Assembly: GCA_963769935.1 (NCBI GenBank)
Contig: CAVYNY010000021.1
Location: 64,001 to 128,000, forward strand
Source of the DNA: an uncultured delta proteobacterium
GTDB taxonomy: Bacteria; Desulfobacterota; Desulfobacteria; Desulfobacterales; JAFDCJ01
Length of the DNA: 64,000 nt
Reading direction: 5' to 3'
Below are positions 8,462 through 63,240 of the stretch, piece by piece. The notes beneath the pieces are model-generated. The model did no database searches, was not told the origin of the DNA, and was given only the letters and a program-made list of their open reading frames with translations. Position 1 is the first letter of the stretch, and the number at the start of each line of letters is the position of its first letter. The position numbers and the translations under genes are program-made.

Positions 8462-9862
8462 ATGGAATCGATTCCCGCGAAACAGACGCCCGTGCTGGTT
8501 GTCGACGATGACGAAGGACTCCTTTTAAGCATTAAAGCAACCCTGGTCAGTGCGGGTTTACCCGAACCGGCACTTGCCTCGGACAGCCGCAATACCTTGG
8601 ATCTGATGCGAACCCATCATTTTCAACTGGTATTGTTGGATCTGATGATGCCGTATCTAAACGGCATCGAGGTGCTGGAAAAAATCAAAAGTGAATTCCC
8701 GGAAACGGAATGCGTGATTGTCAGTGCCAGCGATGAGGTGGCCACTGCAGTGCAGGCCATGACCCTGGGGGCATCCGACTACCTGGTAAAACCCCTGAAC
8801 AGTGAAAAACTTATCGCCCTGGTGAATCGCAGCCTCGAAAAATATAATCTGCAGGACGAACTGGCGCGGTTCGGCCGCCAGAAAGTTTTTGCCGAGTTGA
8901 AGAACCCGGAGGCCTTTGCCGGCATGGTTGCTGAAGATGAGTCCATGGCGTTGGTATTTCATCAGGTTGAAGCTGTCGCCGGCACCGATTACAGCGTGGT
9001 GATCAACGGTGAATCCGGCACCGGCAAGGAGATGCTGGCACGGGTCATACACAAACTGAGCAATCGCTCCAAAGCACCCTTCTATGCCGTCAACATGGCA
9101 TCCTTCAGCAAAACCATATTCGAAGATGAGTTCTTCGGTCATGCCAAAGGCGCCTATACGGATGCTGCAAGTGAGAGACGCGGTTTTTTCGAGGCAGCTC
9201 ACGGGGGTACGCTTTTTCTGGATGAAATCACCGAGTTGGATCCGTCGTTGCAGGCTAAACTGTTAAGGGTCATCGAAGAGCGCGAATTCTATCGGTTGGG
9301 AAGTACTGAAATTAGAAATGTTGATGTCCGCATTGTTGCGGCAACCAATCGCGATATCCATGAGGACATAATTAAAGGTCGCTTTCGGGCCGACCTGTTT
9401 TACCGGATTAACATGTATAACATCAAGATTCCGCCTTTGAGGGAGAGAAAGAATGATATTCTGCCGCTGGCCAGGCATTTTCTTAATCTCCATTCCAGGG
9501 CCAACAACAAGAAAATCCGTGACTTGTCCTCTGAGTTGGCTGAAAGGCTGCTGCGGTGTTCCTTTCTCGGCAACGTCAGAGAGCTTGAAAACATGATAGC
9601 TGCGGCGGTATTGCTGGAAAAGGGCAAGACCCTGACACTGGCTTCCGCCCGCAATTTGTTGCCGTACAACGGACCCGAACGGCGTAAAAATGTTGAACTG
9701 CTCACTCTAGACGAAGTTGAAAGGCGACATATCAAACGGGTTCTCGAGGTTACAGGCGGAAATCGACCGAAAGCGGCTAAGATCTTAGGCATCAATGTTT
9801 CAACCGTATATCGCAAATTGGAAAAATACGACATACCAGACAGCAACCCAACGGAGAATTGA
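8462..9862 (+). CDS. NtrC-family sigma54-dependent response regulator (REC-AAA+-HTH)
   Basis: REC (VVDDD, LLDLMMP), GESGTGKE, GAYTDA (GAFTGA variant), LFLDEI, Fis-type HTH. Confidence 0.93.
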   Translation: MESIPAKQTPVLVVDDDEGLLLSIKATLVSAGLPEPALASDSRNTLDLMRTHHFQLVLLDLMMPYLNGIEVLEKIKSEFPETECVIVSASDEVATAVQAMTLGASDYLVKPLNSEKLIALVNRSLEKYNLQDELARFGRQKVFAELKNPEAFAGMVAEDESMALVFHQVEAVAGTDYSVVINGESGTGKEMLARVIHKLSNRSKAPFYAVNMASFSKTIFEDEFFGHAKGAYTDAASERRGFFEAAHGGTLFLDEITELDPSLQAKLLRVIEEREFYRLGSTEIRNVDVRIVAATNRDIHEDIIKGRFRADLFYRINMYNIKIPPLRERKNDILPLARHFLNLHSRANNKKIRDLSSELAERLLRCSFLGNVRELENMIAAAVLLEKGKTLTLASARNLLPYNGPERRKNVELLTLDEVERRHIKRVLEVTGGNRPKAAKILGINVSTVYRKLEKYDIPDSNPTEN

Positions 9863-9971: not shown

Positions 9972-10421
9972 ATGTCAGATGGCTTGGATGTTATCGTCCT
10001 TGACGACGATCGCGGCATTTGCGAGATCATCTCCGAGTTGATCGAAAGTTTTTATTCGTGGGGGAAAGTATATCCTTTTTCGGATCCGGAGGAAGCGATA
10101 ACATTTTGTCTGCAACGGGACATCGGAGTTGCGATTTTTGTGGTGGATGTTTTTCTCGGCGGCCTGAACGGATTTTATTTTTTAGATGCCATCGCAGAAA
10201 AGTATCCCACTGCGTATGAAGATGCAATCATGATCAGCGGCAATGCCAGTGATGACGTGGTGAACATGTGCCTGGCATCCAACGTGAACTACTTGCTGGA
10301 AAAGCCTCTTAAACCTTATGCCCTGCAGCTCGCCGTAAGGGCCATAACGGCCAAATACTTGGAATTTGCCAAAAAACTAATGGAGGATTCACGGTTTGCT
10401 AAAAATGTGGCCAGACTTTAG
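9972..10421 (+). CDS. Stand-alone response regulator receiver protein
   Basis: IVLDDD, VVDVFL, ISG, LEKPL receiver signature. Confidence 0.88.
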   Translation: MSDGLDVIVLDDDRGICEIISELIESFYSWGKVYPFSDPEEAITFCLQRDIGVAIFVVDVFLGGLNGFYFLDAIAEKYPTAYEDAIMISGNASDDVVNMCLASNVNYLLEKPLKPYALQLAVRAITAKYLEFAKKLMEDSRFAKNVARL

Positions 10422-10482: not shown

Positions 10483-11220
10483 ATGGCTGAAACTGAAAAA
10501 ATTCGGGGAGGCGAAATTGCAACGCTTTTGACAGAGCTGCAGCAGCTTAAAACCCCGCTAAAAATTCGTTGGACGGATGATGATGAAGAATATTTAACCT
10601 ATATCACGGATATCCGCAAACGGAAGCGAACGCTTCATTTTCTTGTCAACTATCAGGAAGATCTTCCCAAAACCCGTGAGGCTGCCAATCCTTCACAGCT
10701 GCGGTTTGAATTCAGCGATAAAGAAAACATTAAATATGTCTTTGAAACCAACGCCGATGAATTCTCCCGGGGAATGGTGTGGGTGGCTTTTCCGGAATCC
10801 ATCCAGCGATACCAGCGACGCAGCCTTTTCAGGCTGGAAGCGCCCCACGGCACCCGGCTCTATTTCAACGTCAACGATGTCCGCTGTAAGCTGCTCGTCA
10901 TTAATGTCAGTCTGGGCGGGACCCTCGGTGTGCTGGTCAGCTTGACCAAACAAATGGAGCACGAACTCACATCCTGCCAGTCGCAAACATTGAAGAATGT
11001 CGAACTGTTCTTTCCTCCCAAAATTCAAAAAGAACAAGGTTCCGTAATCAAGATCAAACGCTGCCGGATTATAAGACAGGAACGAAATCCACTGACCCAA
11101 AAATTCGAATGCGCCATGGAGTTCAAAGAAATAGAAGAAGCTGAGCAGAAGAAGTTAACACGGCAATTCTACCGTTGGCAAAGAGAGTATCTACGAAGAA
11201 GAAAATTGATGGGCGCTTAG
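10483..11220 (+). CDS. PilZ-domain protein (YcgR/flagellar brake-like)
   Basis: QRRSLFR (RxxxR) and NVSLGG (D/NxSxxG) motifs after a ~100-aa N-terminal domain. Confidence 0.8.
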   Translation: MAETEKIRGGEIATLLTELQQLKTPLKIRWTDDDEEYLTYITDIRKRKRTLHFLVNYQEDLPKTREAANPSQLRFEFSDKENIKYVFETNADEFSRGMVWVAFPESIQRYQRRSLFRLEAPHGTRLYFNVNDVRCKLLVINVSLGGTLGVLVSLTKQMEHELTSCQSQTLKNVELFFPPKIQKEQGSVIKIKRCRIIRQERNPLTQKFECAMEFKEIEEAEQKKLTRQFYRWQREYLRRRKLMGA

Positions 11221-13126: not shown

Positions 13127-13588
13127 TTAAGATGCGATATAGTCTCCTCTGTAAAATTTGGTTGTTTCCAGTGAGGCGGTAACCAGCGTCTGATTGACGA
13201 TATCTTTGAGTTTCTCGCCATCGGGCAATGTATCCAACACCGGTGCCAGCTTTTCCCTCTGCTTGTCAATTTCTTGGATGATGGGATCAATTTTTTTCAG
13301 GCTATTGCCAGGATCAGACAGCATTTGACGGTAATGATCAAGCAGGTCGATTAAATTTTCCACGCGCTCAGTGGCAACCTGCCGATCCCATCCAAAAGTT
13401 TCCGCCGACCGGATTCCGGACAGGGGATTGACAAAAGTCGTCGACCGCGATCCCGCAACTTCCGGCGGCTTATTTCCAATGGTCTCTTTTAAAATATCAC
13501 CAAATTTTTCGCCGACCGCCGGCTGGGAATCCGTTTTGCCCTCGGTATAAAGATTCTGGAGTATTTGATGGTAATTTTCAATTTTCAT
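13127..13588 (-). CDS. Hypothetical helical protein, flagellar-locus associated
   Basis: Clean ORF with AAGGA RBS; FGDILKE and C-terminal KFYRGDY; flagellar-type promoter elements upstream. Confidence 0.75.
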   Translation of the reverse strand: MKIENYHQILQNLYTEGKTDSQPAVGEKFGDILKETIGNKPPEVAGSRSTTFVNPLSGIRSAETFGWDRQVATERVENLIDLLDHYRQMLSDPGNSLKKIDPIIQEIDKQREKLAPVLDTLPDGEKLKDIVNQTLVTASLETTKFYRGDYIAS

Positions 13589-13870: not shown

Positions 13871-14383
13871 TTAGGCCGCCTCGGACAGCAGCGACAGTTC
13901 ATCATTGCTTAAAACCCGGTCAATATCCAATAATATTTTGACGCCACCTTCCATTTTTGCCATCCCGAGAATATAGTCGGTGTTTAGCTTGGTGCCGAAG
14001 GTGGGGGTTTTTTCTATGTCGTCGCCCTTGATATTTAGAACCTCCGATACCGCATCAACCACTATGCCGATCAGGATGGTTCCTGCATTGCCGGAGATTT
14101 CCACAACAATGATACAGGTTCGCTCGGTATAGTCGATGGCCGGCATGCCAAATCTCAATCGAAGATCCAGCACGGGAATGACCTTCCCCCGAAGGTTGAT
14201 TACCCCTTTCACATAGTCCGGCGTCTGCGGCACCGAAGTTATCGGCAGCATGCCGATGATCTCTTTGATCTTCAGGATGCCGATACCGTAATCTTCTTCC
14301 GCCAATGTGAACGTAAGATATTTGCCTTCCTTATCGGCCATAGCCTTGACCGCCTGATTAATCTTCTCCTCGACATGTGCCAT
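13871..14383 (-). CDS. cheW: Chemotaxis scaffold protein CheW
   Basis: KYLTF.L..E.YGI, VPQTP.YVKGVINLRGKVIPVLDLR, GIVVDAVSEV. Confidence 0.96.
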   Translation of the reverse strand: MAHVEEKINQAVKAMADKEGKYLTFTLAEEDYGIGILKIKEIIGMLPITSVPQTPDYVKGVINLRGKVIPVLDLRLRFGMPAIDYTERTCIIVVEISGNAGTILIGIVVDAVSEVLNIKGDDIEKTPTFGTKLNTDYILGMAKMEGGVKILLDIDRVLSNDELSLLSEAA

Positions 14384-14401
14384 CGTCTTTTCTCCTTATA
14401 T

Positions 14402-15142
14402 CTAGCTTTTTGAAATTGATTTCAGCGGTACGCCCAGCACCAGATATGACATAGGCGGTTCCCGCAGCGGATGAACCGAGACCCGAATCGCGCGGCTTCC
14501 GAACGATCCGTTATTAATTAAAATCCGGCAGTCTTCGTTCACCGCAGGCTTTCCAACCGCCATTTTTCTGACCGCCTCAATGACCTTGGGCAGTGAACCG
14601 GAATAAATAATTTTTTCAAGTCCCATGCCCACTAGATCTCTTTGCTGAACACCACATAAGTCGGCACAGAGAGAATTGCCGCCCCACAGGTACAAATCCT
14701 TAAAGACAGCGGCCGGCCCATTAATTTGATGGACGAATTGGATGCGGTGCAAATAGGTTTCGATGTAATAGCGGCAAGTGTTACAGTCCCTACAGCTCAG
14801 CAAACCGCTGTCTTTAAGCGTGAAACAGGGCTGCAGCTGATTCTTAAACGCAATACATTCGCCGCATCCGTGTCCGTGATCAGTGCCGTGCCAGAAATGC
14901 CAACAGGTCTGAAAGCTTTTGTAAATGGGCCCGTTTGAGTTTTCCGGCCACAATTCGGGCGGTATTTTTTGCCCGTTGCTGTTAAGGAAAAACAAAAGGT
15001 CTTCAACCGGAATCGTATAATTTCTTCCCGCCCGATTGGCATGCAATTTTCTGGAGCGAATCCAGTATCCGACGGTGGTGCGCCCCACCCCGCACAGGAC
15101 AGCCGCCTGGGATACCGACAATGTTTTTTTGTTTTCGGCCAT
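14402..15142 (-). CDS. Excisionase/MerR-type HTH protein with Cys-rich and PAS-like domains
   Basis: LSVSQAA..CGV...TV..WI HTH; CW..CGEC..C..C.DCNTC cluster; C-terminal N...ADL.G....DLVG PAS-like segment. Confidence 0.75.
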   Translation of the reverse strand: MAENKKTLSVSQAAVLCGVGRTTVGYWIRSRKLHANRAGRNYTIPVEDLLFFLNSNGQKIPPELWPENSNGPIYKSFQTCWHFWHGTDHGHGCGECIAFKNQLQPCFTLKDSGLLSCRDCNTCRYYIETYLHRIQFVHQINGPAAVFKDLYLWGGNSLCADLCGVQQRDLVGMGLEKIIYSGSLPKVIEAVRKMAVGKPAVNEDCRILINNGSFGSRAIRVSVHPLREPPMSYLVLGVPLKSISKS

Positions 15143-15173
15143 TCGTACGATAACTCCTTGCTGACTGGGGCAT

Positions 15174-15200
15174 ATATCGGCAATTCCTCAAAAAACTTGA
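15174..15200 (-). promoter_or_regulatory. sigma28 (FliA) promoter of the HTH-cheW unit
   Basis: TCAA-N15-GCCGATAT. Confidence 0.75.
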
Positions 15201-15290
15201 TCCAAAATTAGGGAATCCCGGCTGTCAGGCCTTAGAGGCTGAATAAAAAATAAACCAGTCCGGCAGAATTAATGCAATAATTGCCCACCT

Positions 15291-15304
15291 GTCGGATTTT
15301 TGAC
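15291..15304. promoter_or_regulatory. FleQ-type enhancer box upstream of the sRNA promoter
   Basis: GTCGGATTTTTGAC (GTC-N8-GAC); related boxes at 47502 and 61977. Confidence 0.5.
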
Positions 15305-15383
15305 GGAATTGCTGCTCAAAACCCACTAGTGGTTCGAAGACAGGCAACATCCTCCAATTCATTTCCGATCCGGCTTATATTCA

Positions 15384-15396
15384 TAACCTGTTGATA
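15384..15396 (-). promoter_or_regulatory. IHF site
   Basis: TATCAACAGGTTA fits WATCAANNNNTTR and lies between the enhancer box and the sigma54 promoter. Confidence 0.55.
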
Positions 15397-15457
15397 TGTT
15401 AATGATTTTATTTTTAAATAACCGTGCGGATCAAGTCGTTACTCTGAATTTATCATC

Positions 15458-15473
15458 TGGCACATTAATTGCT
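15458..15473 (+). promoter_or_regulatory. sigma54 -24/-12 promoter
   Basis: TGGCAC-ATTAA-TTGCT, consensus match; no protein gene downstream on this strand. Confidence 0.8.
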
Positions 15474-15483
15474 TTAATAAACA

Positions 15484-15568
15484 TCAAATGGAATGAAGTT
15501 TCCTCCTTTCCTTCATTCCCACCTCCGACTAACCCTGTTAGGCACCCCCCCTAACAGGGTTTTTCTTT
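15484..15568 (+). ncRNA. Candidate sigma54-dependent small RNA with anti-SD motifs
   Basis: 9-bp stem GGAATGAAG/CTTCATTCC with CCTCCT loop, single-stranded CACCTCC, 12-bp terminator stem plus T-tract; no ORF. Confidence 0.7.
15531..15568 (+). terminator. Intrinsic terminator of the candidate sRNA
   Basis: AACCCTGTTAGG / CCTAACAGGGTT perfect stem followed by TTTCTTT. Confidence 0.85.
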
Positions 15569-15713
15569 GCAGACAGGTGCATAGTACCCCCCTCAAAGGA
15601 TCAAATTAGGTGTCGAAAGGTGTCGAAAAATTGGCAGTCTGCTATTTGGATCGGCCGGAAAGGGAATAAGAAAGAGGATTTGAAGGCAGCTACGACAATA
15701 AATGATATTTATT

Positions 15714-15914
15714 TCAATTACTTAAACGATTTTTCTGATTTTGACGGTGCTTCTTTTTTGGTTCAAACGCCAGACAGTTATTGCCTTGCATGATACGCCG
15801 CACATCCATCATGGGCAGTCGTCGGCTTTTGAAGCCCATGGCGCGGCACCCATGGGGATGGCTCACTTCCCAGGTCACAAAATAATGAATACATCTGCAG
15901 CAGGTTGGGGGCAT
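15714..15914 (-). CDS. Small Cys-rich conserved-type protein (putative metal-binding)
   Basis: CxxCxHYFVTW...P.GC..MGFKS..LP...V......C..F pattern. Confidence 0.75.
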   Translation of the reverse strand: MPPTCCRCIHYFVTWEVSHPHGCRAMGFKSRRLPMMDVRRIMQGNNCLAFEPKKKHRQNQKNRLSN

Positions 15915-15921
15915 TCGTTCG

Positions 15922-16123
15922 TTGGGTTTATAGTGTTTATTGCGTTTACTTAGTTGATCGTGATGAATCTTTGGGTTTTGATCGTTTAGATCGTTATGAT
16001 CGTTATGATCGTTTAGTTCGTTATGATCGTCGCCTTAGTTTTCAACCTATTCAACGCAACCAGCCCAGTAAACTTTCACTCGACATTCGGCATTCGGCAT
16101 TCATCATTTGTCAATCGTCATTC
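15922..16123. repeat. Intergenic 9-mer and 7-mer tandem arrays
   Basis: GATCGTTAT/GATCGTTTA array at 15980-16030, TTGGGTTTA-like array with a degenerate inverted partner, CATTCGG heptamer array at 16084-16123. Confidence 0.75.
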
Positions 16124-16125
16124 CG

Positions 16126-16617
16126 CTAACGGTCCCCCGCGCGGTATCTTCGGTTTCCCCCGGTATCAACGACTATCCCCATATTCCGGAGCAGATCGAA
16201 TGCCTCCTCACGCTGGGAGTTGTATCCTTCCCCGCTGACCGCAATGACCGCCTGAATGACTTCATCGCTCAATCCGGCTTGTTTGAGCTCGATTACATCC
16301 TGCGCACTGGTAAACCGCAGGGACTTCATCTGCTGGCCGTAAATGATGGGTTCTGAGGCTTTTAAAAAAGAACTTTCCCGCATCAGCATTCGGAGGGTTT
16401 CTTCCCCCAGACCGGCTTTCTTCATATGCACGATGTCATCGACGCTGAATGCGGCTGTTTCGATCACCTTCTCTTCAGCAATTATCTGGATGGTCAAATC
16501 GCTGATACCGGCTTTTTTCAGCTCAACGACATTTTTGCCGCTCAAGCCTGCGGCCGGGTGGGCGGCAATGAAAAGCATGTTCAAAAAAATTGCAGCGACG
16601 ATTGCTTTTTTTTTCAA
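16126..16617 (-). CDS. Secreted hypothetical protein with three helical repeats
   Basis: Signal peptide; VVELKKAGISD, IVHMKKAGLGE, VIELKQAGLSD; 9 bp after flgL. Confidence 0.75.
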   Translation of the reverse strand: MKKKAIVAAIFLNMLFIAAHPAAGLSGKNVVELKKAGISDLTIQIIAEEKVIETAAFSVDDIVHMKKAGLGEETLRMLMRESSFLKASEPIIYGQQMKSLRFTSAQDVIELKQAGLSDEVIQAVIAVSGEGYNSQREEAFDLLRNMGIVVDTGGNRRYRAGDR

Positions 16618-16626
16618 AACGTCACC

Positions 16627-17538
16627 TTATTTCAAAAAATCCATCAGATTCGGCTGAACGATCTTGGCCGCCGCCGCCAGGGTGGTTTCGTAGGCAAGTC
16701 CAAGGTTTGTTAATTCCAAAGCCGTTTGCGTAATGTCGGCCTGTTCGGTATCAGCCAGCGCGTCTTGCACCTTGGGCTTTAAATTGTCCCAGTATTCACC
16801 GGTATACTGCAGACGGTACAAGGCCGGAGCATATTCGGCGCGCCGGTCATTTATTTGCTGCCGGGCGTCGTAAAGGGGGCTGACTGTAGCCTGGATTTGA
16901 GCGCTGCCGGCCACTGGATCGGCGTTTTCCAAGCCATCGATCAAATTTTTCAACTCGTCGAATAAATTAACCCCACCATTGGCCGCATTTTGAAATATGT
17001 TGCGGCCGTCGGCATCGATGCCAATTTCTACGTTTTCACCGACCATAAGCCGCATCTGACCGTCATCACCATGATAGGTGGCATTATAATCGGCATCGTG
17101 GGAAAAAGGTGCCGTATCAGTGGCGTGGCCGGCAAAAATATAATTATTATTAAACTTTGAGTTGGCCAGAGATTCGAGCTGATCGTAGAGGTCTTTTATC
17201 TGCTGGGCAATGAGTTTTTTTTCCTCCGGGGTGACCCCCACACCGGAGTAATTTTCAGCCATTTTCTGGGCGGTGAGGACCAGGTCGGAAGCAAAGTCCA
17301 GGGTCTGCTCGTTGGATTCAAGCAGGCTGACTCCCTGATCAATATTATCTTTATACTGGTCGATGGTCGCAATTTTAGCTCGATAACCGAGCACCTGCCC
17401 CATCCCGATGGGATCATCGGAAATTTTATTGATGCGCTTTTGCGATGCAATCTGCTGCTGGGCCTTGAGAATATCGCCGGCTTGTTGATGAATGTTGCGG
17501 ATAAAAGTGTTAATCGTAATTTTTGGGGTTACCCTCAT
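16627..17538 (-). CDS. flgL: Flagellar hook-associated protein 3
   Basis: MRVT, ASQKRINKISDDP, YIFAGH, C-terminal NLMDFLK; follows flgK. Confidence 0.93.
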   Translation of the reverse strand: MRVTPKITINTFIRNIHQQAGDILKAQQQIASQKRINKISDDPIGMGQVLGYRAKIATIDQYKDNIDQGVSLLESNEQTLDFASDLVLTAQKMAENYSGVGVTPEEKKLIAQQIKDLYDQLESLANSKFNNNYIFAGHATDTAPFSHDADYNATYHGDDGQMRLMVGENVEIGIDADGRNIFQNAANGGVNLFDELKNLIDGLENADPVAGSAQIQATVSPLYDARQQINDRRAEYAPALYRLQYTGEYWDNLKPKVQDALADTEQADITQTALELTNLGLAYETTLAAAAKIVQPNLMDFLK

Positions 17539-17705: not shown

Positions 17706-19400
17706 TTAAATCATATTCAATACCGTCTGCATCATTTCATCGGCGGTTGTAATCAATTTGGCGGCTGCCTGGTAGGCATTCTGGAATTTTACCAGATTGA
17801 TCATCTCTTCATCGATGGATACCCCGGAAATGGATTCCCGATAGTTTTCCAGTTGCCCCACCATCTGGTCCTGATGACTGTAATAGGAGTCGGCCTGCTG
17901 AACCGCGTTGCCGACATCCCCGATATAGGATTCATAGTAGGCGCCGAACGTGGCCGTATTGCCTTTCATGGTCATCGCGTTTTCTAAATTGGCAATGGCA
18001 ATGGCATTGCTGTTGTCCCCGGGTTTGTCGCCGGGTGTGGTATTGAAGCTCTGCGCCGCAGCAATCAGCTGATCATCCAGAACAATCGCCGGATTGACCA
18101 GCATCTCGGCTGCCGATGATCCGCCGGACAGCGTGACGGTGTCCGTGCCGGAACCCAGTGTCCAGGCTGCGGCCGGCGCGGCCGCCACCGCTGTAGCGAT
18201 GGTTGAATGGGCTTGCAGCGCCGCGGCGATTTGAGCCTGGGTCGAGACACCATCCTCAATGGCAATCCGAATGTCCCCGGTCACGGGGTCAGTCATCACG
18301 GTTTCGGATCCGGCGGTACCGCCGGCGACCAGCGTAATCGCGATATTACCTGCCCCGCCCTCTTCGGCGCTAACCGTCAGGGCAGAATCCAGCACACCCG
18401 AAGCGGTGGCGGCGCCGGTGAAAAAATCATTGCCGGTCGAACCATCGAGCCCGTAACCGCTCGCATGCAAGGTATTGACTGCTTCCATAAAACTTTGCGC
18501 CAGAGTGTCCAGCCGATTCAGATAGTTTCGAATGTCCAGATCTCTGGCATTCAGCCAACCCTTCATCTTGCCGCCGGAAATCGTGTCGGTAATGTCCACT
18601 GTGTTATCGGCCGCGTCCACCCAAACGACATTTTGATTGCCGGCAGAGTTTACCTGAGTTGAAAGTCGGTAGACATTGGTCCCTTCCACCAGCGGCTGTC
18701 CGCTGCCCACCGAGACCGTAACGCCGCCGTTGGCATTTTCAAAGCTGTCGATGTCGATCAGTTCGGAAAGGTCGTTCAATAACTGATCCCGCTGATCCCG
18801 GAAATCATTGGCCGTATCACCGCCGGCTTCCATTTGGACAATTTTTTGATTCAGACTGCCAATCTTCTCGGACAACAGATTGATTTCATCAACGTTGCCT
18901 TTGATCATGGTGTCAATGTCCGTTTGAACCGTTTGCAGATCCTGGTAGTTGTTGGAGAATGTCGTCGCCAGCGTTTCACTTTTGGCTACCAGCACGCTGC
19001 GTTCAACCGAACCGGAGGGGTTATTGGAAAGATCCTGCCAGGCATTCCAGAAATCGCTCATAACCTGACTCAATCCGTAGCCTCCGGATTCATCTGAAAT
19101 CATTTCCACCCTTTCGAGCATATCCTTGTTGGCTTCCCACTTACCCAGGCTCTGGGTTTCATTGTTGATCTGGACCCCCAGAAACCGTTGGTAGATCCTT
19201 TCGACTTCGATCGCATTCACACCGGTACCCACCGGTCCGATGCTGGAGTCGACGGGAAAATCGCTGGCCATATTCAACCGCTGCCGGCTGTAACCGGGGG
19301 TATTTATATTGGCAATATTGTTGCCGGTGACATAAATACCTTTCTGCTGGGCTGACAGCGCTTTGCTGCCGATACTGAGCACACCGAAGATATCCGTCAT
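17706..19400 (-). CDS. flgK: Flagellar hook-associated protein 1
   Basis: GNNIANINTPGYSRQR N-terminus; SGVSIDEEMINLVKFQNAYQAAAK C-terminus. Confidence 0.96.
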   Translation of the reverse strand: MTDIFGVLSIGSKALSAQQKGIYVTGNNIANINTPGYSRQRLNMASDFPVDSSIGPVGTGVNAIEVERIYQRFLGVQINNETQSLGKWEANKDMLERVEMISDESGGYGLSQVMSDFWNAWQDLSNNPSGSVERSVLVAKSETLATTFSNNYQDLQTVQTDIDTMIKGNVDEINLLSEKIGSLNQKIVQMEAGGDTANDFRDQRDQLLNDLSELIDIDSFENANGGVTVSVGSGQPLVEGTNVYRLSTQVNSAGNQNVVWVDAADNTVDITDTISGGKMKGWLNARDLDIRNYLNRLDTLAQSFMEAVNTLHASGYGLDGSTGNDFFTGAATASGVLDSALTVSAEEGGAGNIAITLVAGGTAGSETVMTDPVTGDIRIAIEDGVSTQAQIAAALQAHSTIATAVAAAPAAAWTLGSGTDTVTLSGGSSAAEMLVNPAIVLDDQLIAAAQSFNTTPGDKPGDNSNAIAIANLENAMTMKGNTATFGAYYESYIGDVGNAVQQADSYYSHQDQMVGQLENYRESISGVSIDEEMINLVKFQNAYQAAAKLITTADEMMQTVLNMI

Positions 19401-19402
19401 AG

Positions 19403-20488
<1,086 letters not shown>

Positions 20489-47295: not shown

Positions 47296-47311
47296 AGCAA
47301 GTATTGTGCCA
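47296..47311 (-). promoter_or_regulatory. sigma54 promoter of the motA operon
   Basis: TGGCAC-AATAC-TTGCT consensus match; GTCAACTCTTTGAC box at 47502-47515. Confidence 0.8.
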
Positions 47312-47565
47312 CAGAATGGCGCGCCTTGATCTCAAAACTGTTCGTGGCCTTCAACCGCCGGGACGGTTGAACTCTATGAAATAAAATGAAAAAAATCGTG
47401 AACGGCAGTTTGGTGATCAGACACGGTTCGGGTGCAGGCACAACCGGCACCGGGCAGCGGGCTGCCGGTTGGGGGGCAGGCGTCAATTTTAGCAGTTGTT
47501 AGTCAACTCTTTGACGACAAAACAAAAGTATCAAATGGGAAAATTGGCGAATCTTGTCCGGCCGG

Positions 47566-48175: not shown

Positions 48176-49407
48176 TTATCGTTTAATATTGATCAGCTCA
48201 TTCAGGATTTCATCACTGGTGGTGATCACCCGGGAATTGGCCTGAAACGCTCGCTGGGTGGTGATCATCTTGACGAACTCCTGCGCCAGGTCGATGTTGG
48301 ACATTTCAATGGCACCGGGGGAGACCGAACCCAGCCGACCATTCCCGGCAACTCCCGGCATCGGCTGCCCGGACTCCAGAGATTCGGCATAGAGGTTCTT
48401 TCCCAGTTTGCTCAACCCATCGTAGCTGGGAAAATCGGCCAGCGCTATCTGGTAGGTCGGGGTCAGTTGGCCGTTGGAATACGCAGCGGTGACCACACCG
48501 GCTTCATCTACCGATATGCCCCGCAGCACGCCGGAAGCATATCCGTCCTGGTACTGGAAGGTCGTGCTGGACGGTGATGAATATCCGGTGACATCTCCAA
48601 GGCTTGTGCCGCCGGCATCGAACAGATCCCAGGTGAGTGTCTGTGGCGTGGCCGCCCCGTTGGCCATGGTAATGGATAAGGTTTGATCGGCCGCCGGTGC
48701 TGTTAAATTGCCGGCGCTCGTCAAAGGTAAGCGCTGCCGTTGATGCGCCACCAATTGTAGCCGGACCGTTGGGCGAAGGAACGGAGGCCGCCACCGACCA
48801 GCTTTGCGCGGCGGCCTGTTTGGTAAAGGTCAGGGTCAAGGGAATGGCATTGCCCAGGGAGTCAAAAATCGACTGGGAAGTCGAATAGGTGCCATTGGTT
48901 GCGGTCTGTGAATCCAAGTTGAGGTCGAATGTAAACTCTGTTGTGGCGGACGGCGGAGAGATCCGTTCTCCGGGAATGCTGACGGTCGGTAAGATTTCCC
49001 AGATTGCCGCTGCTGTCGATCTCGTAGCCCTGAACATTCATTCCGTCCGGATTGACCATATCGCCGGCATCATTCAGATAAAACTGCCCGGCCCGGGTAT
49101 AGAAGTTGGAGCCGCTGTCATCCTGCACGATAAAAAACCCTTGCCGTTGATGGCCAGATCGGTGGGGTTGCTTGTAGTTTTCCAGCGACCCCTGGGTCCA
49201 CAGCGGACTGGTACCCCAAAATTCGACGCCCCGGCCAATACCGCTGCTGAGCGAACCGCCCAGGGATTGACTTAATACATTGGCAAACATGGACCGGTTG
49301 GCCTTAAATGCGGTGGTGTTGACATTGGCGATATTGTCGCCGATGACCGTCATGGCGGTCGAGTTGGCATTGAGGCCTGAAATTCCTGCAAACAATGATC
49401 CTATCAT
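48176..49407 (-). pseudogene. flgE: Flagellar hook protein FlgE with four apparent frameshifts (probably assembly errors)
   Basis: MIGSLFAGISGL...GDNIANVNT N-terminus and EMSNIDLAQEF..MI.TQRAFQANSR C-terminus; indels near 49180, 49135, 48985 and 48719; net correction gives 410 codons. Confidence 0.9.
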
Positions 49408-49409
49408 TT

Positions 49410-50160
49410 TTATTTTCCTCCATTGATTAAAGGGGTTGATAGACTGTGGATGCCGGGTCGATCCGAATCGGATGCGGAGAGGTCCGCCAGCCGCCGCATT
49501 TTCAAGGGCAACCTCAACCACATCTCCCAGGGCAATTTTTTGGCTGCCGGAGATCAAAAAGGATGCATTATTCTCAAATGTCACTTTATCCACGGTGCCG
49601 GTGTAAAAAGTTGTGGCATCAATGTCCTTGCCATTGATATCCGCAGCCATAATTTCAAAGGTATAATTGCCGTCGGGCGCCCGATTGCCGTTTTTATCGG
49701 TGCCGTCCCACGACAGGGAATTCTGACCGGCGGTCAAATTCGGGCTTTCAATGGCCTTAACAAATTCGCCGCTACTGTCATAAACATTGGCCACAACCAG
49801 GGCGGCGTCATCCGCCAGTTTGAAATTACATTCGACCGGATCGTCGGCGGTTAGCTTAATAAAATTGCCGTTGGCGGTGATTGTTTTGCCGATCAGTGAG
49901 ACGGCCTGGGAATTGTTGATGGATGCTTGAAAATTTTTCAATTCCAGCAAGTTGTCATTGACATTGCTCAACTGCTCCAGCGAACTGAATTGGGCCAGCT
50001 GAGAAGTAAACTCAGTACTGTCGGTCGGATTCAGCGGATCCTGGTTCTGCAGCTGGGTAATCAGAAGATTTAAAAAGTCATCCTTATTCAATACTTTTGA
50101 CGGCAGAGCGGTAAGCTGGGTACCGCCGGAAGCGCCTGCATTTAATGCCTCGGTTATCAT
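49410..50160 (-). CDS. flgD: Hook capping protein FlgD (apparent frameshift near the 3' end)
   Basis: DDFLNLLITQLQNQDPLNP, FTSQLAQFSSLEQ, WDGTD; as written it reads into flgE, but a 1-nt correction ends it at NGGK-TAA overlapping the flgE RBS. Confidence 0.9.
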
Positions 50161-50266
50161 ACTGGGTTTCACCTCACATGGTTAAAGTTAACTAATCCGC
50201 CCTGAAAGATAGTACATTCAGAGTTGTAAATTGTTCTTTGAAAACTGAAGCAAGAGAAGCCACCGC

Positions 50267-60164: not shown

Positions 60165-60320
60165 ATAGCAGAAGACAGAGGCCGGATGACAGAAGTCAGA
60201 TGACGGACGACAGACATCCGCATTCCGAATTCCGCCTTATGCCTATGCCCTATGCGCTAAGCCCTCCACCCTTTGCTGCATGCCCTATGCGCTATGCTCC
60301 CAGCCCCTATGCCCTATGCG
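60165..60320. repeat. Heptamer tandem arrays
   Basis: CAGAAGA/CAGATGA, TTCCGCA and CTATGCC/CTATGCG units. Confidence 0.7.
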
Positions 60321-61690
60321 TCCTGCGCCTCTGTTTCTTCCTTATATTCACGCAGTTTATTTCTGAGTGTCCGGATGCTGATCCCCAGGAGCTCGGCGGC
60401 ATGGGTTCGATTATCATTGACCTTTTCCAGGGTTTGAATAATCAAATCTTTTTCCATATCCCGCACCGTAATTCCAATTTTCAAGGCCGGTGCCGCCGGC
60501 AATTGGATCCCACTCTCGGATGTTTCCATCAGCAGATTCTCCGGCAAAATATGCTCACCGCTGCTGATCAGCACCGCCCGCTCAATGGTGTTTTCCAATT
60601 CGCGAACATTTCCATTCCAGGAATGCTTTAGCAGTATCTCTACCGCCGCCTCGCTAAGCCTGGCCACATTTTTACGGTTCAGCCGGTTGTATTTTTCCAT
60701 AAAATGCTGGGCTAATAATACGATATCTTCCTTCCTTTGCCGCAGCGGCGGAAGGTTCAATGGAATCACATTAATTCGGTAATATAAATCCTCTCTGAAT
60801 TTGCCGGCGGCAATCGCCTTTTTTAGATCCACATTGCTGATAGCGATTACTCTGGCATCGATCGGTATCGGATGCGTACCGCCGATCCGATCGATCTCCT
60901 TTTCCTGCAGTACCCGCAGCAGTTTGGCTTGCAGCGGCAACGGCATTTCGCTGATCTCATCCAGCACCACGGTTCCGTTTTTGGCCAGCTCAAATTTGCC
61001 AACTTTGCGGCCGACGGCTCCGGTGAATGATCCTTTTTCATGGCCGAAAAGCTCGCTTTCAGCCAGCGTGTCGGGTAAAGCCGCGCAATTCAGGGCGACA
61101 TAGGGTGCATCCGGCCGAAGACCGCAGCGGTGAACATAGGCAGCCAGCAACTCCTTGCCGGTTCCGCTCTCGCCTTGAATGAGAACCGTGGCTTTGCTGG
61201 GTGCGATGCTCTTGGCCTGTTTTAAAATGGCTATCAATTCGGGGTTGCGGGTAATGATTTCTTTGCCGGCTGAATGACGGCCGTCGCTGCTGGCGCCGGG
61301 TTTGTCCGTGTCGTTTCGGGCCGAAGACTCAACGGCTTTTTTGACTGTTCTTTCAAGAACTTCGGGTGGAAAAGGTTTCAGGATATAATCGCAGGCGCCG
61401 GCCTGCATCGCCGCAACAGCGTTGTGAACGGAACCGTTGGCGGTCATGATGACAACTGGAATTTTCGGCGATATTTTCTTTATTGAATTTAACATTTCCA
61501 TGCCGTCAATCCCAGGTACTTGATCATCCGCTATTATCATGCTGTATTTCAAGGCCTTGAATCTGTCCAAAGCCTCCAGGCCGTCAGATGCAATTTCAAC
61601 CGGAAATCCGACCCGATTTAAACTTTGCCCAATCTCTGTTCGGACTTCCGGCTCGGCATCAACGATTAAGATTGGCGGCAAATCCAGCAA
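60314..61690 (-). CDS. sigma54-dependent response regulator, FleR/FlrC-like
   Basis: REC, GESGTGKE, GSFTGA, C-terminal LGISIRTLRNKL HTH; directly upstream of flgB; start may be GTG 61711. Confidence 0.9.
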   Translation of the reverse strand: MLDLPPILIVDAEPEVRTEIGQSLNRVGFPVEIASDGLEALDRFKALKYSMIIADDQVPGIDGMEMLNSIKKISPKIPVVIMTANGSVHNAVAAMQAGACDYILKPFPPEVLERTVKKAVESSARNDTDKPGASSDGRHSAGKEIITRNPELIAILKQAKSIAPSKATVLIQGESGTGKELLAAYVHRCGLRPDAPYVALNCAALPDTLAESELFGHEKGSFTGAVGRKVGKFELAKNGTVVLDEISEMPLPLQAKLLRVLQEKEIDRIGGTHPIPIDARVIAISNVDLKKAIAAGKFREDLYYRINVIPLNLPPLRQRKEDIVLLAQHFMEKYNRLNRKNVARLSEAAVEILLKHSWNGNVRELENTIERAVLISSGEHILPENLLMETSESGIQLPAAPALKIGITVRDMEKDLIIQTLEKVNDNRTHAAELLGISIRTLRNKLREYKEETEAQDA

Positions 61691-61831
61691 ACTCTTTCCC
61701 CCTTCGACCACGCCCTGGCGCAGTTGGATGTTCGAAGCTCAATGTTATTTCTTCAGTGCTTATCCTGAAGGCTTGATTGTCAAACCAAGCGCTCCGCTGA
61801 ATTCAGTTTTCAGGCAAACCGTCTTTAGGAG

Positions 61832-61847
61832 AGCAATTATCATGCCA
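61832..61847 (-). promoter_or_regulatory. sigma54 promoter of the FleR-like gene
   Basis: TGGCAT-GATAA-TTGCT; GTCACTGCATTGAC box at 61977-61990. Confidence 0.78.
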
Positions 61848-62052
61848 CCGCCCTCTCAGGTGCCGCCGATGGCGACTTGCTATTTTTTTTATTAATATCG
61901 GTAAGTTAATTTAGTATACCCACCAGTGTTAACTCTGCCAAAGCCCTGCGGACTTGTCAAATTTCAGATGAAGTGAGTCACTGCATTGACGCCTGGCTTG
62001 AAGTGCATTTCATCTTAGTCTGGGGGATAGATGGGGGGATAAGGCTTTACTA

Positions 62053-62187: not shown

Positions 62188-63240
62188 TCAAATGTTGCAG
62201 GGTTGTAAATGGTGTCTTTTTATTTTCTCAACCAGGGTGGTGCGATTCAGATGAAGAAGTTTGGCGGCTTTGTTTTTGACCCACTTGGTTTTCTCCAACG
62301 ACTGCAGTATCAAAGCCTTTTCAAATTCGGTGACGGCACTGTTCAGACAGATGCCTTCATCTGAGATTTCAATGGCGGCCGACGGCTCAAATTTATTGGT
62401 GGACTTCAGTTCGAGCGGCAAATCCCGGGGCGTAATCTTTCCGCTTCCTTTTAATACCACCAGCCGTTCGACCATGTTTTTGAGCTCCCGGACATTACCC
62501 GGCCACGAATAACTCATCATCATGGCCAGTGCTTCGTCGGTAATTTCCCTGACATCGCGGTCATTTTTCTGATTCGAGCGGTCCAGGAAATGGGAAATCA
62601 GGTACGGGATGTCGGATTTACGCTCCCGCAATGCAGGCAGCATCATCGGGATAACGTAGAGCCGGTAATATAAATCTTCCCGAAAGTTACCTTTCTGAAC
62701 CTCCTCGGACAGGTCCCGGTGTGTAGCTGCAATAATTCTAACATCGACTTTAATGGTTTTAGCGCCGCCGACCTGTTCAAATTCGCCCTCTTCCAGTACT
62801 TTCAGGACCTTCACCTGCAGATCGGAGCTCATATCGCCGATTTCATCCAATAGAATGGTCCCGCCGTCTGCCAGTTCAAATTTTCCCTGTTTCGAGGAAG
62901 TAGCGCCTGTAAAAGCACCCCGCACATGCCCGAACAGTTCACTCTCCAACAAGTTTTCGGGAATGGCTCCGCAATTTATGGAGATGAAGGGTTGATTCCT
63001 CCTTTTGGATCTATGATGAATGGCCCTGGCCACCATGCCTTTCCCGGTGCCGGTTTCACCGTTTAAAAGGATGGTACTGTCGCAATCCGCGACTTTTTCA
63101 ACCAGATCGAACACCTCCCGCATTTTTTTGCTCTGACCGATAATATTGTGAAACCCGCATTCCTCATTGACCTGAGCTGAGGGTACATGGGTTTGATCCG
63201 AAGTAGCCGGTATGTTTTTATTAAGGGCTGCGTTCTGCAC
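62188..63240 (-). CDS. sigma54 enhancer-binding protein, FleQ/FlrA-like, lacking an N-terminal regulatory domain
   Basis: GETGTGKG, ESELFGHVRGAFTGA, C-terminal LNRTTLVEK HTH typical of FleQ; only ~30 aa precede the AAA+ domain. Confidence 0.9.
   Translation of the reverse strand: MQNAALNKNIPATSDQTHVPSAQVNEECGFHNIIGQSKKMREVFDLVEKVADCDSTILLNGETGTGKGMVARAIHHRSKRRNQPFISINCGAIPENLLESELFGHVRGAFTGATSSKQGKFELADGGTILLDEIGDMSSDLQVKVLKVLEEGEFEQVGGAKTIKVDVRIIAATHRDLSEEVQKGNFREDLYYRLYVIPMMLPALRERKSDIPYLISHFLDRSNQKNDRDVREITDEALAMMMSYSWPGNVRELKNMVERLVVLKGSGKITPRDLPLELKSTNKFEPSAAIEISDEGICLNSAVTEFEKALILQSLEKTKWVKNKAAKLLHLNRTTLVEKIKRHHLQPCNI

Follow-up and report, generated by a model that had tools for sequence, protein, structure and literature searches.

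A conserved family of predicted sigma-54-dependent small RNAs with two anti-Shine-Dalgarno motifs in a motility region of the Desulfobacterales

What does a complete, activator-dependent promoter transcribe when no protein gene stands behind it? The question is raised by a stretch of 64,000 nucleotides (nt) of an uncultured delta proteobacterium of the Desulfobacterales (contig CAVYNY010000021.1, positions 64,001 to 128,000, the whole of it called the window below), in which a sigma-54 promoter lies in a long intergenic region within a cluster of flagellar genes. A first-pass annotation had read the DNA behind this promoter as the gene of a small RNA (sRNA) carrying two anti-Shine-Dalgarno (anti-SD) motifs and belonging to the flagellar regulon. 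Folding, comparison with relatives and searches of known families indicate that the block represents an sRNA family of a known kind, conserved in the Desulfobacterales and apparently not described before, whose function is predicted from sequence.

The RNA would be short and of simple anatomy (Table 1). Folding of positions 15484-15570 gave a minimum free energy of -30.8 kcal/mol, compared with -13.5 ± 2.3 for shuffled sequences (z = -7.4; none of 200 shuffles was as stable), and reproduced the stem-loop of 9 base pairs (bp), the unpaired CACCUCC and the 12-bp terminator with its U tract that had been described at first reading. In hairpin 1, positions 15490-15498 pair with 15511-15519, and the loop UUUCCUCCUUUC, extended by base 15511 at the start of the 3' arm, reads CCUCCUUUCC. 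The single-stranded stretch between this hairpin and the terminator is CACCUCCGACU. The arms of the terminator, 15531-15542 and 15550-15561, are followed by UUUUUCUUU, and the same terminator appears in a separate terminator listing. The 3' tail of the host 16S rRNA is GGAUCACCUCCUUUCU; it has CCUCCUUUC in common with the RNA loop, and the CACCUCC linker equals 7 nt of it. The RNA displays both halves of the anti-SD tail as well as a C-rich terminator loop. It is encoded once in the host genome, which was searched for extra copies and has none.

Conservation is confined to this block. A blastn search of 60 relatives with positions 15280-15600 gave matches only at query positions 179-290, equivalent to window positions 15458-15569, which begin with the first -24 base and close with the terminator. 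The match is present in 15 of 22 genomes of the same genus (85-94% identity); of 38 genomes from other families, three have it (80-89% identity), with a weaker fourth in genome G025. An alignment of 20 sequences shows no likeness in the DNA before the promoter, in the 15-25 nt from the -12 element to the hairpin or beyond the U tract, and TGGCA[CT]-N5-TTGC is kept in all 20 homologues despite these variable flanks and spacer. Because conservation is limited to the promoter and the RNA, the block is more than a chance similarity. An exact-pattern scan of one genome per species (185,579 species), in which the pattern required the hairpin-1 stem sequence, returned 75 loci. Three of them (L054, L062, L075, with no terminator or promoter) are chance matches and 72 have the full anatomy. 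TGGCAY-N5-TTGC precedes the RNA in 68 of these 72 genuine loci; L051 is cut by a contig end, and L059, L080 and L092 lack the match. The record titles, which for all 72 genuine loci denote uncultured organisms or metagenome-assembled genomes, are almost all those of Desulfobacterales, Desulfosarcina, Desulfatibacillum or Desulfobacteraceae metagenome-assembled genomes, and a few carry other phylum labels. We read the latter as binning errors because one such record, L056, is letter-for-letter identical in its core and near flanks to the same-genus locus L013.

A covariance model built from 68 sequences scores 107 bits on 15482-15568. In a sample of 151 genomes of the order it detects the RNA in 15, which belong to nine families, and a phylum-wide sample of 151 genomes added one further convincing relative, in another order. 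An alignment of 97 model matches (74 distinct rows) has 99.5% of its paired cells able to pair, the figure falling to 96.6% in shuffles and to 36-60% once partners are slid. Compensatory changes occur in eight pairs, namely six of the 12 terminator pairs and two of hairpin 1. In the 68-sequence alignment the CCUCC of the linker is invariant and the loop CCUCCUUUC is invariant or nearly so. The claim that no described family covers the RNA also stands: Rfam 15 cmscan of positions 14000-17000, on both strands and with E values up to 10, gave no family reaching its gathering threshold. The only overlapping matches were Hrs1 (minus strand, 17.1 bits for a threshold of 56.4, E 5.5) and narK (16.2 bits for 43.2, E 7.8), and no published description of the RNA was found within the open-access literature searched.

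L088 and L092 are two copies of the RNA in one chromosome record, of which one has the sigma-54 promoter and the other lacks it and adjoins an anthranilate synthase gene. The distant relative in the other order (L154:1470-1590, genome G203) combines TGGCAT-N5-TTGCA, 14 nt upstream, with a hairpin whose loop is UCUCCCUCCUUA and with a terminator. Its neighbours are an enolase-superfamily gene and a phosphoglycerate mutase gene, and it is not part of a motility cluster.

Table 1. Positions of the predicted small RNA, its control elements and neighbouring features in the window
Feature	Position	Strand	Basis or remark
Intergenic region holding the RNA block	15143-16125		between two minus-strand genes
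Activator box GTCGGATTTTTGAC (GTC-N8-GAC, AT-rich spacer)	15291-15304		167 nt before the -24 element
Integration host factor (IHF)-like site TAACCTGTTGATA	15384-15396		between box and promoter
Sigma-54 promoter TGGCAC-ATTAA-TTGCT (-24/-12)	15458-15473	+	perfect match to TGGCAC-N5-TTGCW
Predicted small RNA, ~85 nt	15484-15568	+	start placed from the -12 element, end from the terminator
Hairpin 1: 9-bp stem GGAAUGAAG/CUUCAUUCC and 12-nt loop	15490-15519	+	fold
Hairpin-1 loop UUUCCUCCUUUC, 12 nt	15499-15510	+	near-invariant columns
Unpaired linker CACCUCC	15520-15526	+	fold
Intrinsic terminator: 12-bp stem, C-rich loop, U tract	15531-15568	+	fold and terminator listing
HTH_17 protein gene, 246 amino acids, excisionase-type helix-turn-helix, C-terminal part without family	14402-15142	-	Pfam, NCBIfam
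Sigma-28-like promoter TCAAGTTT-N11-GCCGATAT of the HTH_17 gene	15174-15200	-	kept in L052, L071, L091
Gene of 163 amino acids (unk163), no family	16126-16617	-	convergent to the RNA, next after flgL
flgL	16627-17538
flgK	17706-19406
Response-regulator sigma-54 activator gene (linked activator)	8462-9862	+	Pfam; candidate dedicated activator by linkage
Single-domain response regulator gene	9972-10421
PilZ protein gene	10483-11220
Sigma-54 promoter of motA	47296-47311	-	box GTCAACTCTTTGAC at 47502-47515, ~200 nt upstream
FleR/FlbD-like response-regulator sigma-54 activator gene	60314-61711		promoter on minus strand
Sigma-54 promoter of the FleR-like gene	61832-61847	-	box GTCACTGCATTGAC at 61977-61990, ~140 nt upstream
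Receiver-less sigma-54 activator gene, head of the flagellar cluster	62188-63240	-	Pfam; candidate master regulator

The promoter, the upstream box and the IHF-like site all read where the first-pass annotation had placed them. The IHF-like site is the reverse complement of the IHF consensus WATCAANNNNTTR; an A/T-rich element resembling TAAC-N4-TG(W)(W)AT occupies the corresponding position in most same-genus homologues, with mismatches to that consensus. Matches to TGGCA[CT]-N5-TTGC[ATC] number only three in the 64 kb, at the promoters of the RNA, of motA and of the FleR-like gene. Related boxes had been said to precede the two latter promoters and are indeed found there. Across seven genomes, the motA/fliL promoter is kept with its GTCAA-N4-TTGAC box in six and the FleR-like box in three, and the flgF and flgB sigma-54 promoters have no GTCA-N6-TGAC box in the same comparison. 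Upstream of the RNA, 16 of 20 close homologues have the form TGTCG[GA]A[AT]TTTTGACG at a distance of 166-199 nt from the -24 element, and an exact GTC-N8-GAC is found in 39 of the 72 wider loci, at 165-185 nt in 33 of these. Other lineages have GTCAGATATTTGAC, GTCACATATTTGAC or GTCAGAGATTTGAC at this position, of the GTCA-N6-TGAC type.

Of 123 strong sigma-54 matches in the host genome, 47 are no more than 250 nt away from a gene start, as called by a crude procedure, and eight of these gene-proximal promoters have GTC-N8-GAC 85-204 nt upstream, in all eight cases as GTCA-N6-TGAC. Among the eight are the promoters of motA and of the FleR-like gene. Two others belong to a MinD/FlhG-like gene, 7 kb from flgM, and to the gene of a 1504-residue glycosyl-/methyltransferase/radical-SAM protein, which shares its contig with the flagellin gene and lies about 18 kb past it. 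This comparison supports placing the RNA promoter with the box-bearing sigma-54 tier. A role of the box as operator of the divergently encoded HTH_17 protein was rejected, the box persisting where the HTH_17 gene is absent or a remnant (L008, L009, L012, L013 and L022 have the box and no intact gene).

The flagellar connection is supported by the location of the RNA, by its restriction to genomes with flhA and by the box type shared with the motA/fliL and FleR-like promoters. Neighbours were counted by tblastn at 91 loci (L036-L126, three of them chance matches): the HTH_17 gene is found at 51 loci, an HDOD gene at 45, unk163 at 29, flgL at 28 and cheW at 24. The usual site of the RNA is between flgL and the sigma-28-type helix-turn-helix gene or cheW. 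The HTH_17 gene, its commonest neighbour, is divergent from the RNA wherever checked. Its promoter, sigma-28-like by comparison with the FliA consensus, is kept in relatives, and the gene therefore looks like a late flagellar gene. All 15 RNA carriers of the order sample have flhA, compared with 77 of the 151 genomes overall, and the RNA occurs in none of the 74 flhA-negative genomes. Since the genomes are related and thus not independent, this restriction lends support to a flagellar link without amounting to a test of it. In eight genomes with both on one contig, 14-36 kb separate the RNA from flhA.

We favour, with moderate confidence, the explanation that the locus is a stand-alone sigma-54 sRNA gene whose product would act in trans, through its two exposed anti-SD motifs, on ribosome-binding sites (RBSs) or SD-like sites. 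Transcription from the activator-dependent promoter would begin near 15484. Activation would proceed through the GTC(G/A)-N6-TGAC box by an enhancer-binding protein of the type that serves the motA/fliL and FleR-like promoters, and such a shared type of activator would put the RNA in the early sigma-54 tier of the flagellar hierarchy. Occlusion of RBSs, likely independent of Hfq, would be its mode of action.

Several observations weigh against this explanation. In the order sample 62 flhA-bearing genomes do not have the RNA, and about 12 divergent members lie outside motility clusters, in contexts such as UvrD/MoxR, thioesterase, ArsR, AsnA and anthranilate synthase genes, most of them keeping the sigma-54 promoter. 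The RNA box differs from the flagellar boxes by a GTCG half and by a spacer of A and T only, and this AT-rich form precedes no other sigma-54 promoter of the host genome (1 of 19 relaxed boxes). The box does resemble the published FleQ boxes GTCaNTAAAtTGAC and GTCAaAAAAtTGAC, which PMC6120874 quotes and calls unreliable genome-wide. Four sequencing runs compared with the block yielded assembled contigs only. Contigs from three RNA-labelled runs cover 15484/85-15564/65 and then continue into unlike flanks, X3 through a TGGCAC...TTGC sequence; they may stem from DNA or read-through and inform on neither expression nor transcript ends. One contig of an RNA-labelled run, X2, stops at 15484/85, a weak hint that we do not count. 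Finally, a motif identical to the 16S tail would match any strong SD, and the translation starts of the neighbouring genes pair with the RNA at background level (means of -7 to -12 kcal/mol for their start regions, compared with -9.5 ± 3.7 genome-wide). Nor was any translation start consistently better than background among 58 window genes plus fliC and flgM compared in seven genomes, for which 60-80 kb around the RNA were taken from six further carriers. The best mean pairings were those of flgB (-16.4 kcal/mol), fliH (-15.5), fliL (-15.0) and flgC (-14.0), for a cluster mean of -11.9 ± 4.0.

The 8-nt matches reported earlier at the RBSs of flgE, flgC and a beta-barrel protein gene are all present and, as targets, were no better than background in the seven genomes. 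The accompanying caution that SD matches arise by chance was well placed: 8-mers complementary to nt 1-50 of the RNA occur 156 times in the window, where about 84 are expected from uniform composition, so three such matches are ordinary. Other routes to targets were tried and abandoned. The host flgM, suggested by analogy with CJnc230 (see below), offers some 6-7 contiguous pairs at its SD, a weak match. Exact complements of at least 11 nt, sought genome-wide, are mostly ordinary strong SDs (AAAGGAGGAAAC) and uninformative, and leaders with a double GGAGG gave 58 matches without pattern. A ranking of starts by whole-region duplexes was dominated by purine-rich octamer repeats and by long, loopy duplexes. 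These repeats are a feature of the host genome in their own right: tandem (GAGARGGT)n units occupy more than 50 intergenic sites, for example C11:543534-543589, C9:301367-301428 and C16:23801-23838, and dominate naive duplex predictions.

The same RNA could receive another input. It might be the dedicated output of the linked activator, encoded together with the single-domain response regulator and the PilZ protein, and would then report an environmental or cyclic di-GMP-related signal rather than the flagellar master regulator, much as in the Qrr-LuxO and GlmY-GlrR pairs; we hold this to be rather unlikely, yet the most serious alternative. Three activator genes are present in the window, and rpoN is also found in the host genome. 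All seven genomes compared have an orthologue of the linked activator (65-87% identity) at 5.2-7.1 kb from the RNA, even G080, which has a different layout, and the linkage holds in G129 and G051, where RNA and flgL lie 14 kb apart. The cluster-head activator is found 39-55 kb from the RNA in six genomes. The genomic uniqueness of the AT-rich box form makes a dedicated activator possible, and a Desulfovibrio sigma-54 response regulator targets an sRNA beside its own gene (PMC3333781). However, linkage inside one large motility cluster is weak evidence, no activator gene is found within 2.5 kb of the divergent members that lie elsewhere, and the type, half-sites and distance of the box are like those of the conserved flagellar promoters. 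As for the FleQ-like activator that the first-pass annotation had put in charge of the RNA, the FleQ domain (PF06490) was found by Pfam in none of the three window activators, and the host genome has three weak matches to it (25-28 bits), all on other contigs. The flagellar link survives from that proposal on the strength of location, flhA and box type, and the identity of the activator as FleQ-like is a lead rather than a finding.

Readings that change the nature of the RNA itself appear less probable. It is quite unlikely to be a decoy or sponge that sequesters a protein or a second RNA by means of its pyrimidine tract and its motifs like the 16S tail. The hairpin-1 stem is invariant in 68 of 68 aligned members while the terminator stem covaries freely, which suggests a constraint beyond pairing, and searches of starts and leaders gave no convincing specific mRNA target. 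Yet the invariance was partly built in by the scan pattern, which demanded this stem, and the divergent members G071 and G139 have changed hairpin arms (GUGAGGUUGAAG...CUUCCUUCAC) and keep both motifs, as loop UCCUCCUUUCC and linker CACCUCC. Moreover, no candidate protein to be sequestered is known. CsrA, which binds GGA and not CCUCC, and Hfq are both absent. A CsrA sponge transcribed from the minus strand, with GGA motifs, was discarded, since promoter, U tract and conservation fit the plus strand only and the genome has no CsrA. Very improbable is a locus without any independent RNA gene, that is a cis-acting leader or attenuator, the gene of a small protein, or the neighbours' terminator. 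The layout of hairpin and terminator is attenuator-like, and an ATG at 15493 opens a frame of 38 codons. This ATG, though, is buried in the stem and has no SD, and the frame is shifted in homologues by 1-nt loop insertions and changes in the length of the C run, so the small-protein reading was rejected. No co-oriented gene follows: the next one, unk163, is convergent and 556 nt away, in agreement with the original statement that no protein gene stands behind the promoter. Downstream flanks are unconserved, whereas 68 of 72 loci preserve a promoter dedicated to the block.

For the favoured trans-acting sRNA, the best lead to a target is the flagellin mRNA, and it is a tentative one that we rate below even chances. 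The flagellin gene begins at G000:C21:131100, 3.1 kb past the end of the window, and its leader (~130965-131100; L130:1365-1500) is about 135 nt long, conserved and preceded by a sigma-28-type promoter. A 5'-terminal hairpin with a 21-nt loop exposes GAAAGGAGGGGG, a second small hairpin UUGGCAAGAAAGCCAA precedes the SD, and the leader has no Rfam match. The GGAAAGGAGG of the first loop is a perfect complement, over 10 nt, of CCUCCUUUCC of the RNA, and the site ranks 20th among 7462 upstream regions of the host genome and is retained across several families. Among 24 flagellin leaders read, 17 have the exact motif, four have variants and three have none; the exact motif lies 100-130 nt before the ATG and is doubled in G129 and G051. 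The layout of the leader resembles that of CsrA-regulated flagellin leaders, though the host genome has no CsrA or FliW. Hfq and CsrA were not found in this genome, which is 96.7% complete. Two side observations concern flagellin genes as such. The host frame (L129:1456-2160, G000:C21:131100-131804) closes at 234 amino acids with its conserved C-terminal part in another frame; those of relatives have 270-300 amino acids, so a frameshift or assembly error is likely. The flagellin gene of G037 (L148) has a sigma-54-type promoter, TGGCAC-N5-TTGCA, in place of the sigma-28 type.

A broader idea, which we consider unlikely, is that the RNA is a 16S-tail mimic made by sigma-54 in the early tier that replaces the CsrA-FliW flagellin checkpoint. 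It would clamp the leader of the sigma-28 flagellin at its 5' end, on the exposed GGAAAGGAGG loop (or loops), and might cover the SD too. In favour of the idea are the leader hairpin and the complementarity just described. CsrA and FliW are absent from all 11 sampled genomes with the canonical RNA, and the carriers that have both (G025, G071 and G139) are those with the most divergent RNA forms; counted by family the contrast is 6 versus 2, a trend only. The same leader hairpin occurs in G060, where CsrA and FliW are present and the RNA is absent, and for this reason it looks like an old CsrA-type or ribosome-binding site, which also speaks for the idea. Several facts count against the idea and against the leader as target: the site is a generic perfect SD, and any perfect SD matches the RNA; G049 carries the RNA and its site is degenerate; and G045 has the motif variant GAAAGGAGGG and neither partner. 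If the replacement were true, synthesis of the filament protein or stability of its mRNA would be tied to basal-body gene expression in those Desulfobacterales that lost CsrA, FliW and Hfq.

Each trait of the predicted RNA has precedents. Stand-alone sRNA genes with sigma-54 promoters, upstream activator sites and often a nearby activator are known from the Qrr/LuxO and GlmY/GlmZ/GlrR systems. IHF takes part in the case of GlmY/GlmZ, the Qrr RNAs are multi-copy and Hfq-dependent, and GlmY acts by protein mimicry. The RNA of the window differs from all of these in sequence and fold, has no Rfam match, is single copy and belongs to a genome in which no Hfq was found. In Firmicutes, RsaE/RoxS and UCCC-motif sRNAs pair C-rich motifs, including one in the terminator loop, with G-rich SDs without Hfq; RsaE/RoxS have sigma-A promoters, redox and metabolic regulons and an unrelated sequence, whereas the RNA described here has a sigma-54 promoter and no Rfam match. 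Campylobacter jejuni is not known to have Hfq. Its CJnc230 (FlmE) is RpoN-dependent, belongs to the middle flagellar tier and pairs its single-stranded region with the RBSs of flgM and Cj1387c, which it blocks, flgM being repressed in this way (PMC11187230). Processing of the flgE mRNA at its 3' end yields CJnc230, in contrast to the separate sigma-54 promoter with box and IHF-like site found here. The rhizobial sRNAs NfeR1/alpha-r14 have redundant CCUCCUCCC anti-SD motifs and are Hfq-independent (PMC10746234). Like the RNA of the window, these RNAs and AbcR1/2 are short, with several unpaired, near-invariant anti-SD copies, and block RBSs, a mode of action that is predicted here. NfeR1 has three hairpins, each with CCUCCUCCC, and is activated by LsrB and repressed by NtrC in another phylum; here one loop with CCUCCUUUC and the linker CACCUCC share the task under a sigma-54 promoter.

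Regulatory RNAs of sulfate-reducing Desulfobacterota are almost unexplored, and this family would be a widespread example with unusually strong conservation and a fully conserved sigma-54 architecture that makes its regulation predictable. It would be the second independent case, after CJnc230, of an sRNA in the sigma-54 flagellar tier, in hosts without Hfq and CsrA. Its two motifs, which together amount to the 16S anti-SD tail, could serve as a model for the target specificity of an anti-SD mimic. With the covariance model, annotators can add a gene that the existing annotations of more than 70 species lack.

The rest of the window forms a single large region of motility genes, in which Pfam identifies che genes, flgN to flgF, fliA, flhFG, flhAB, fliLMNOPR, motAB, flgDE, fliK, fliFGHIJ and flgBC. 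The RNA is oriented opposite to the flagellar genes, and flgE is about 33 kb away. The unk163 gene follows flgL in about 29 related loci and holds the slot that fliW-csrA have in Bacillus; its product has no FliW match. Between the terminator of the RNA and this convergent gene lies a short tandem repeat of gatcgttatgatcgtttag-like units (15950-16040), unconserved in relatives. Beside cheW, a conserved protein of 153 amino acids (13127-13588, minus strand) gives a faint NCBIfam match to FliX (E 3.7e-4, 20.9 bits for a cut-off of 153). In Caulobacter, FliX is the partner of the sigma-54 activator FlbD. In the flgD-flgE region, the minus-strand frame 48862-50172 joins FlgD domains to the N-terminal domains of FlgE and the FlgE C-terminus is found in a separate frame (48176-48754), suggesting mis-called starts or frameshifts in this region.

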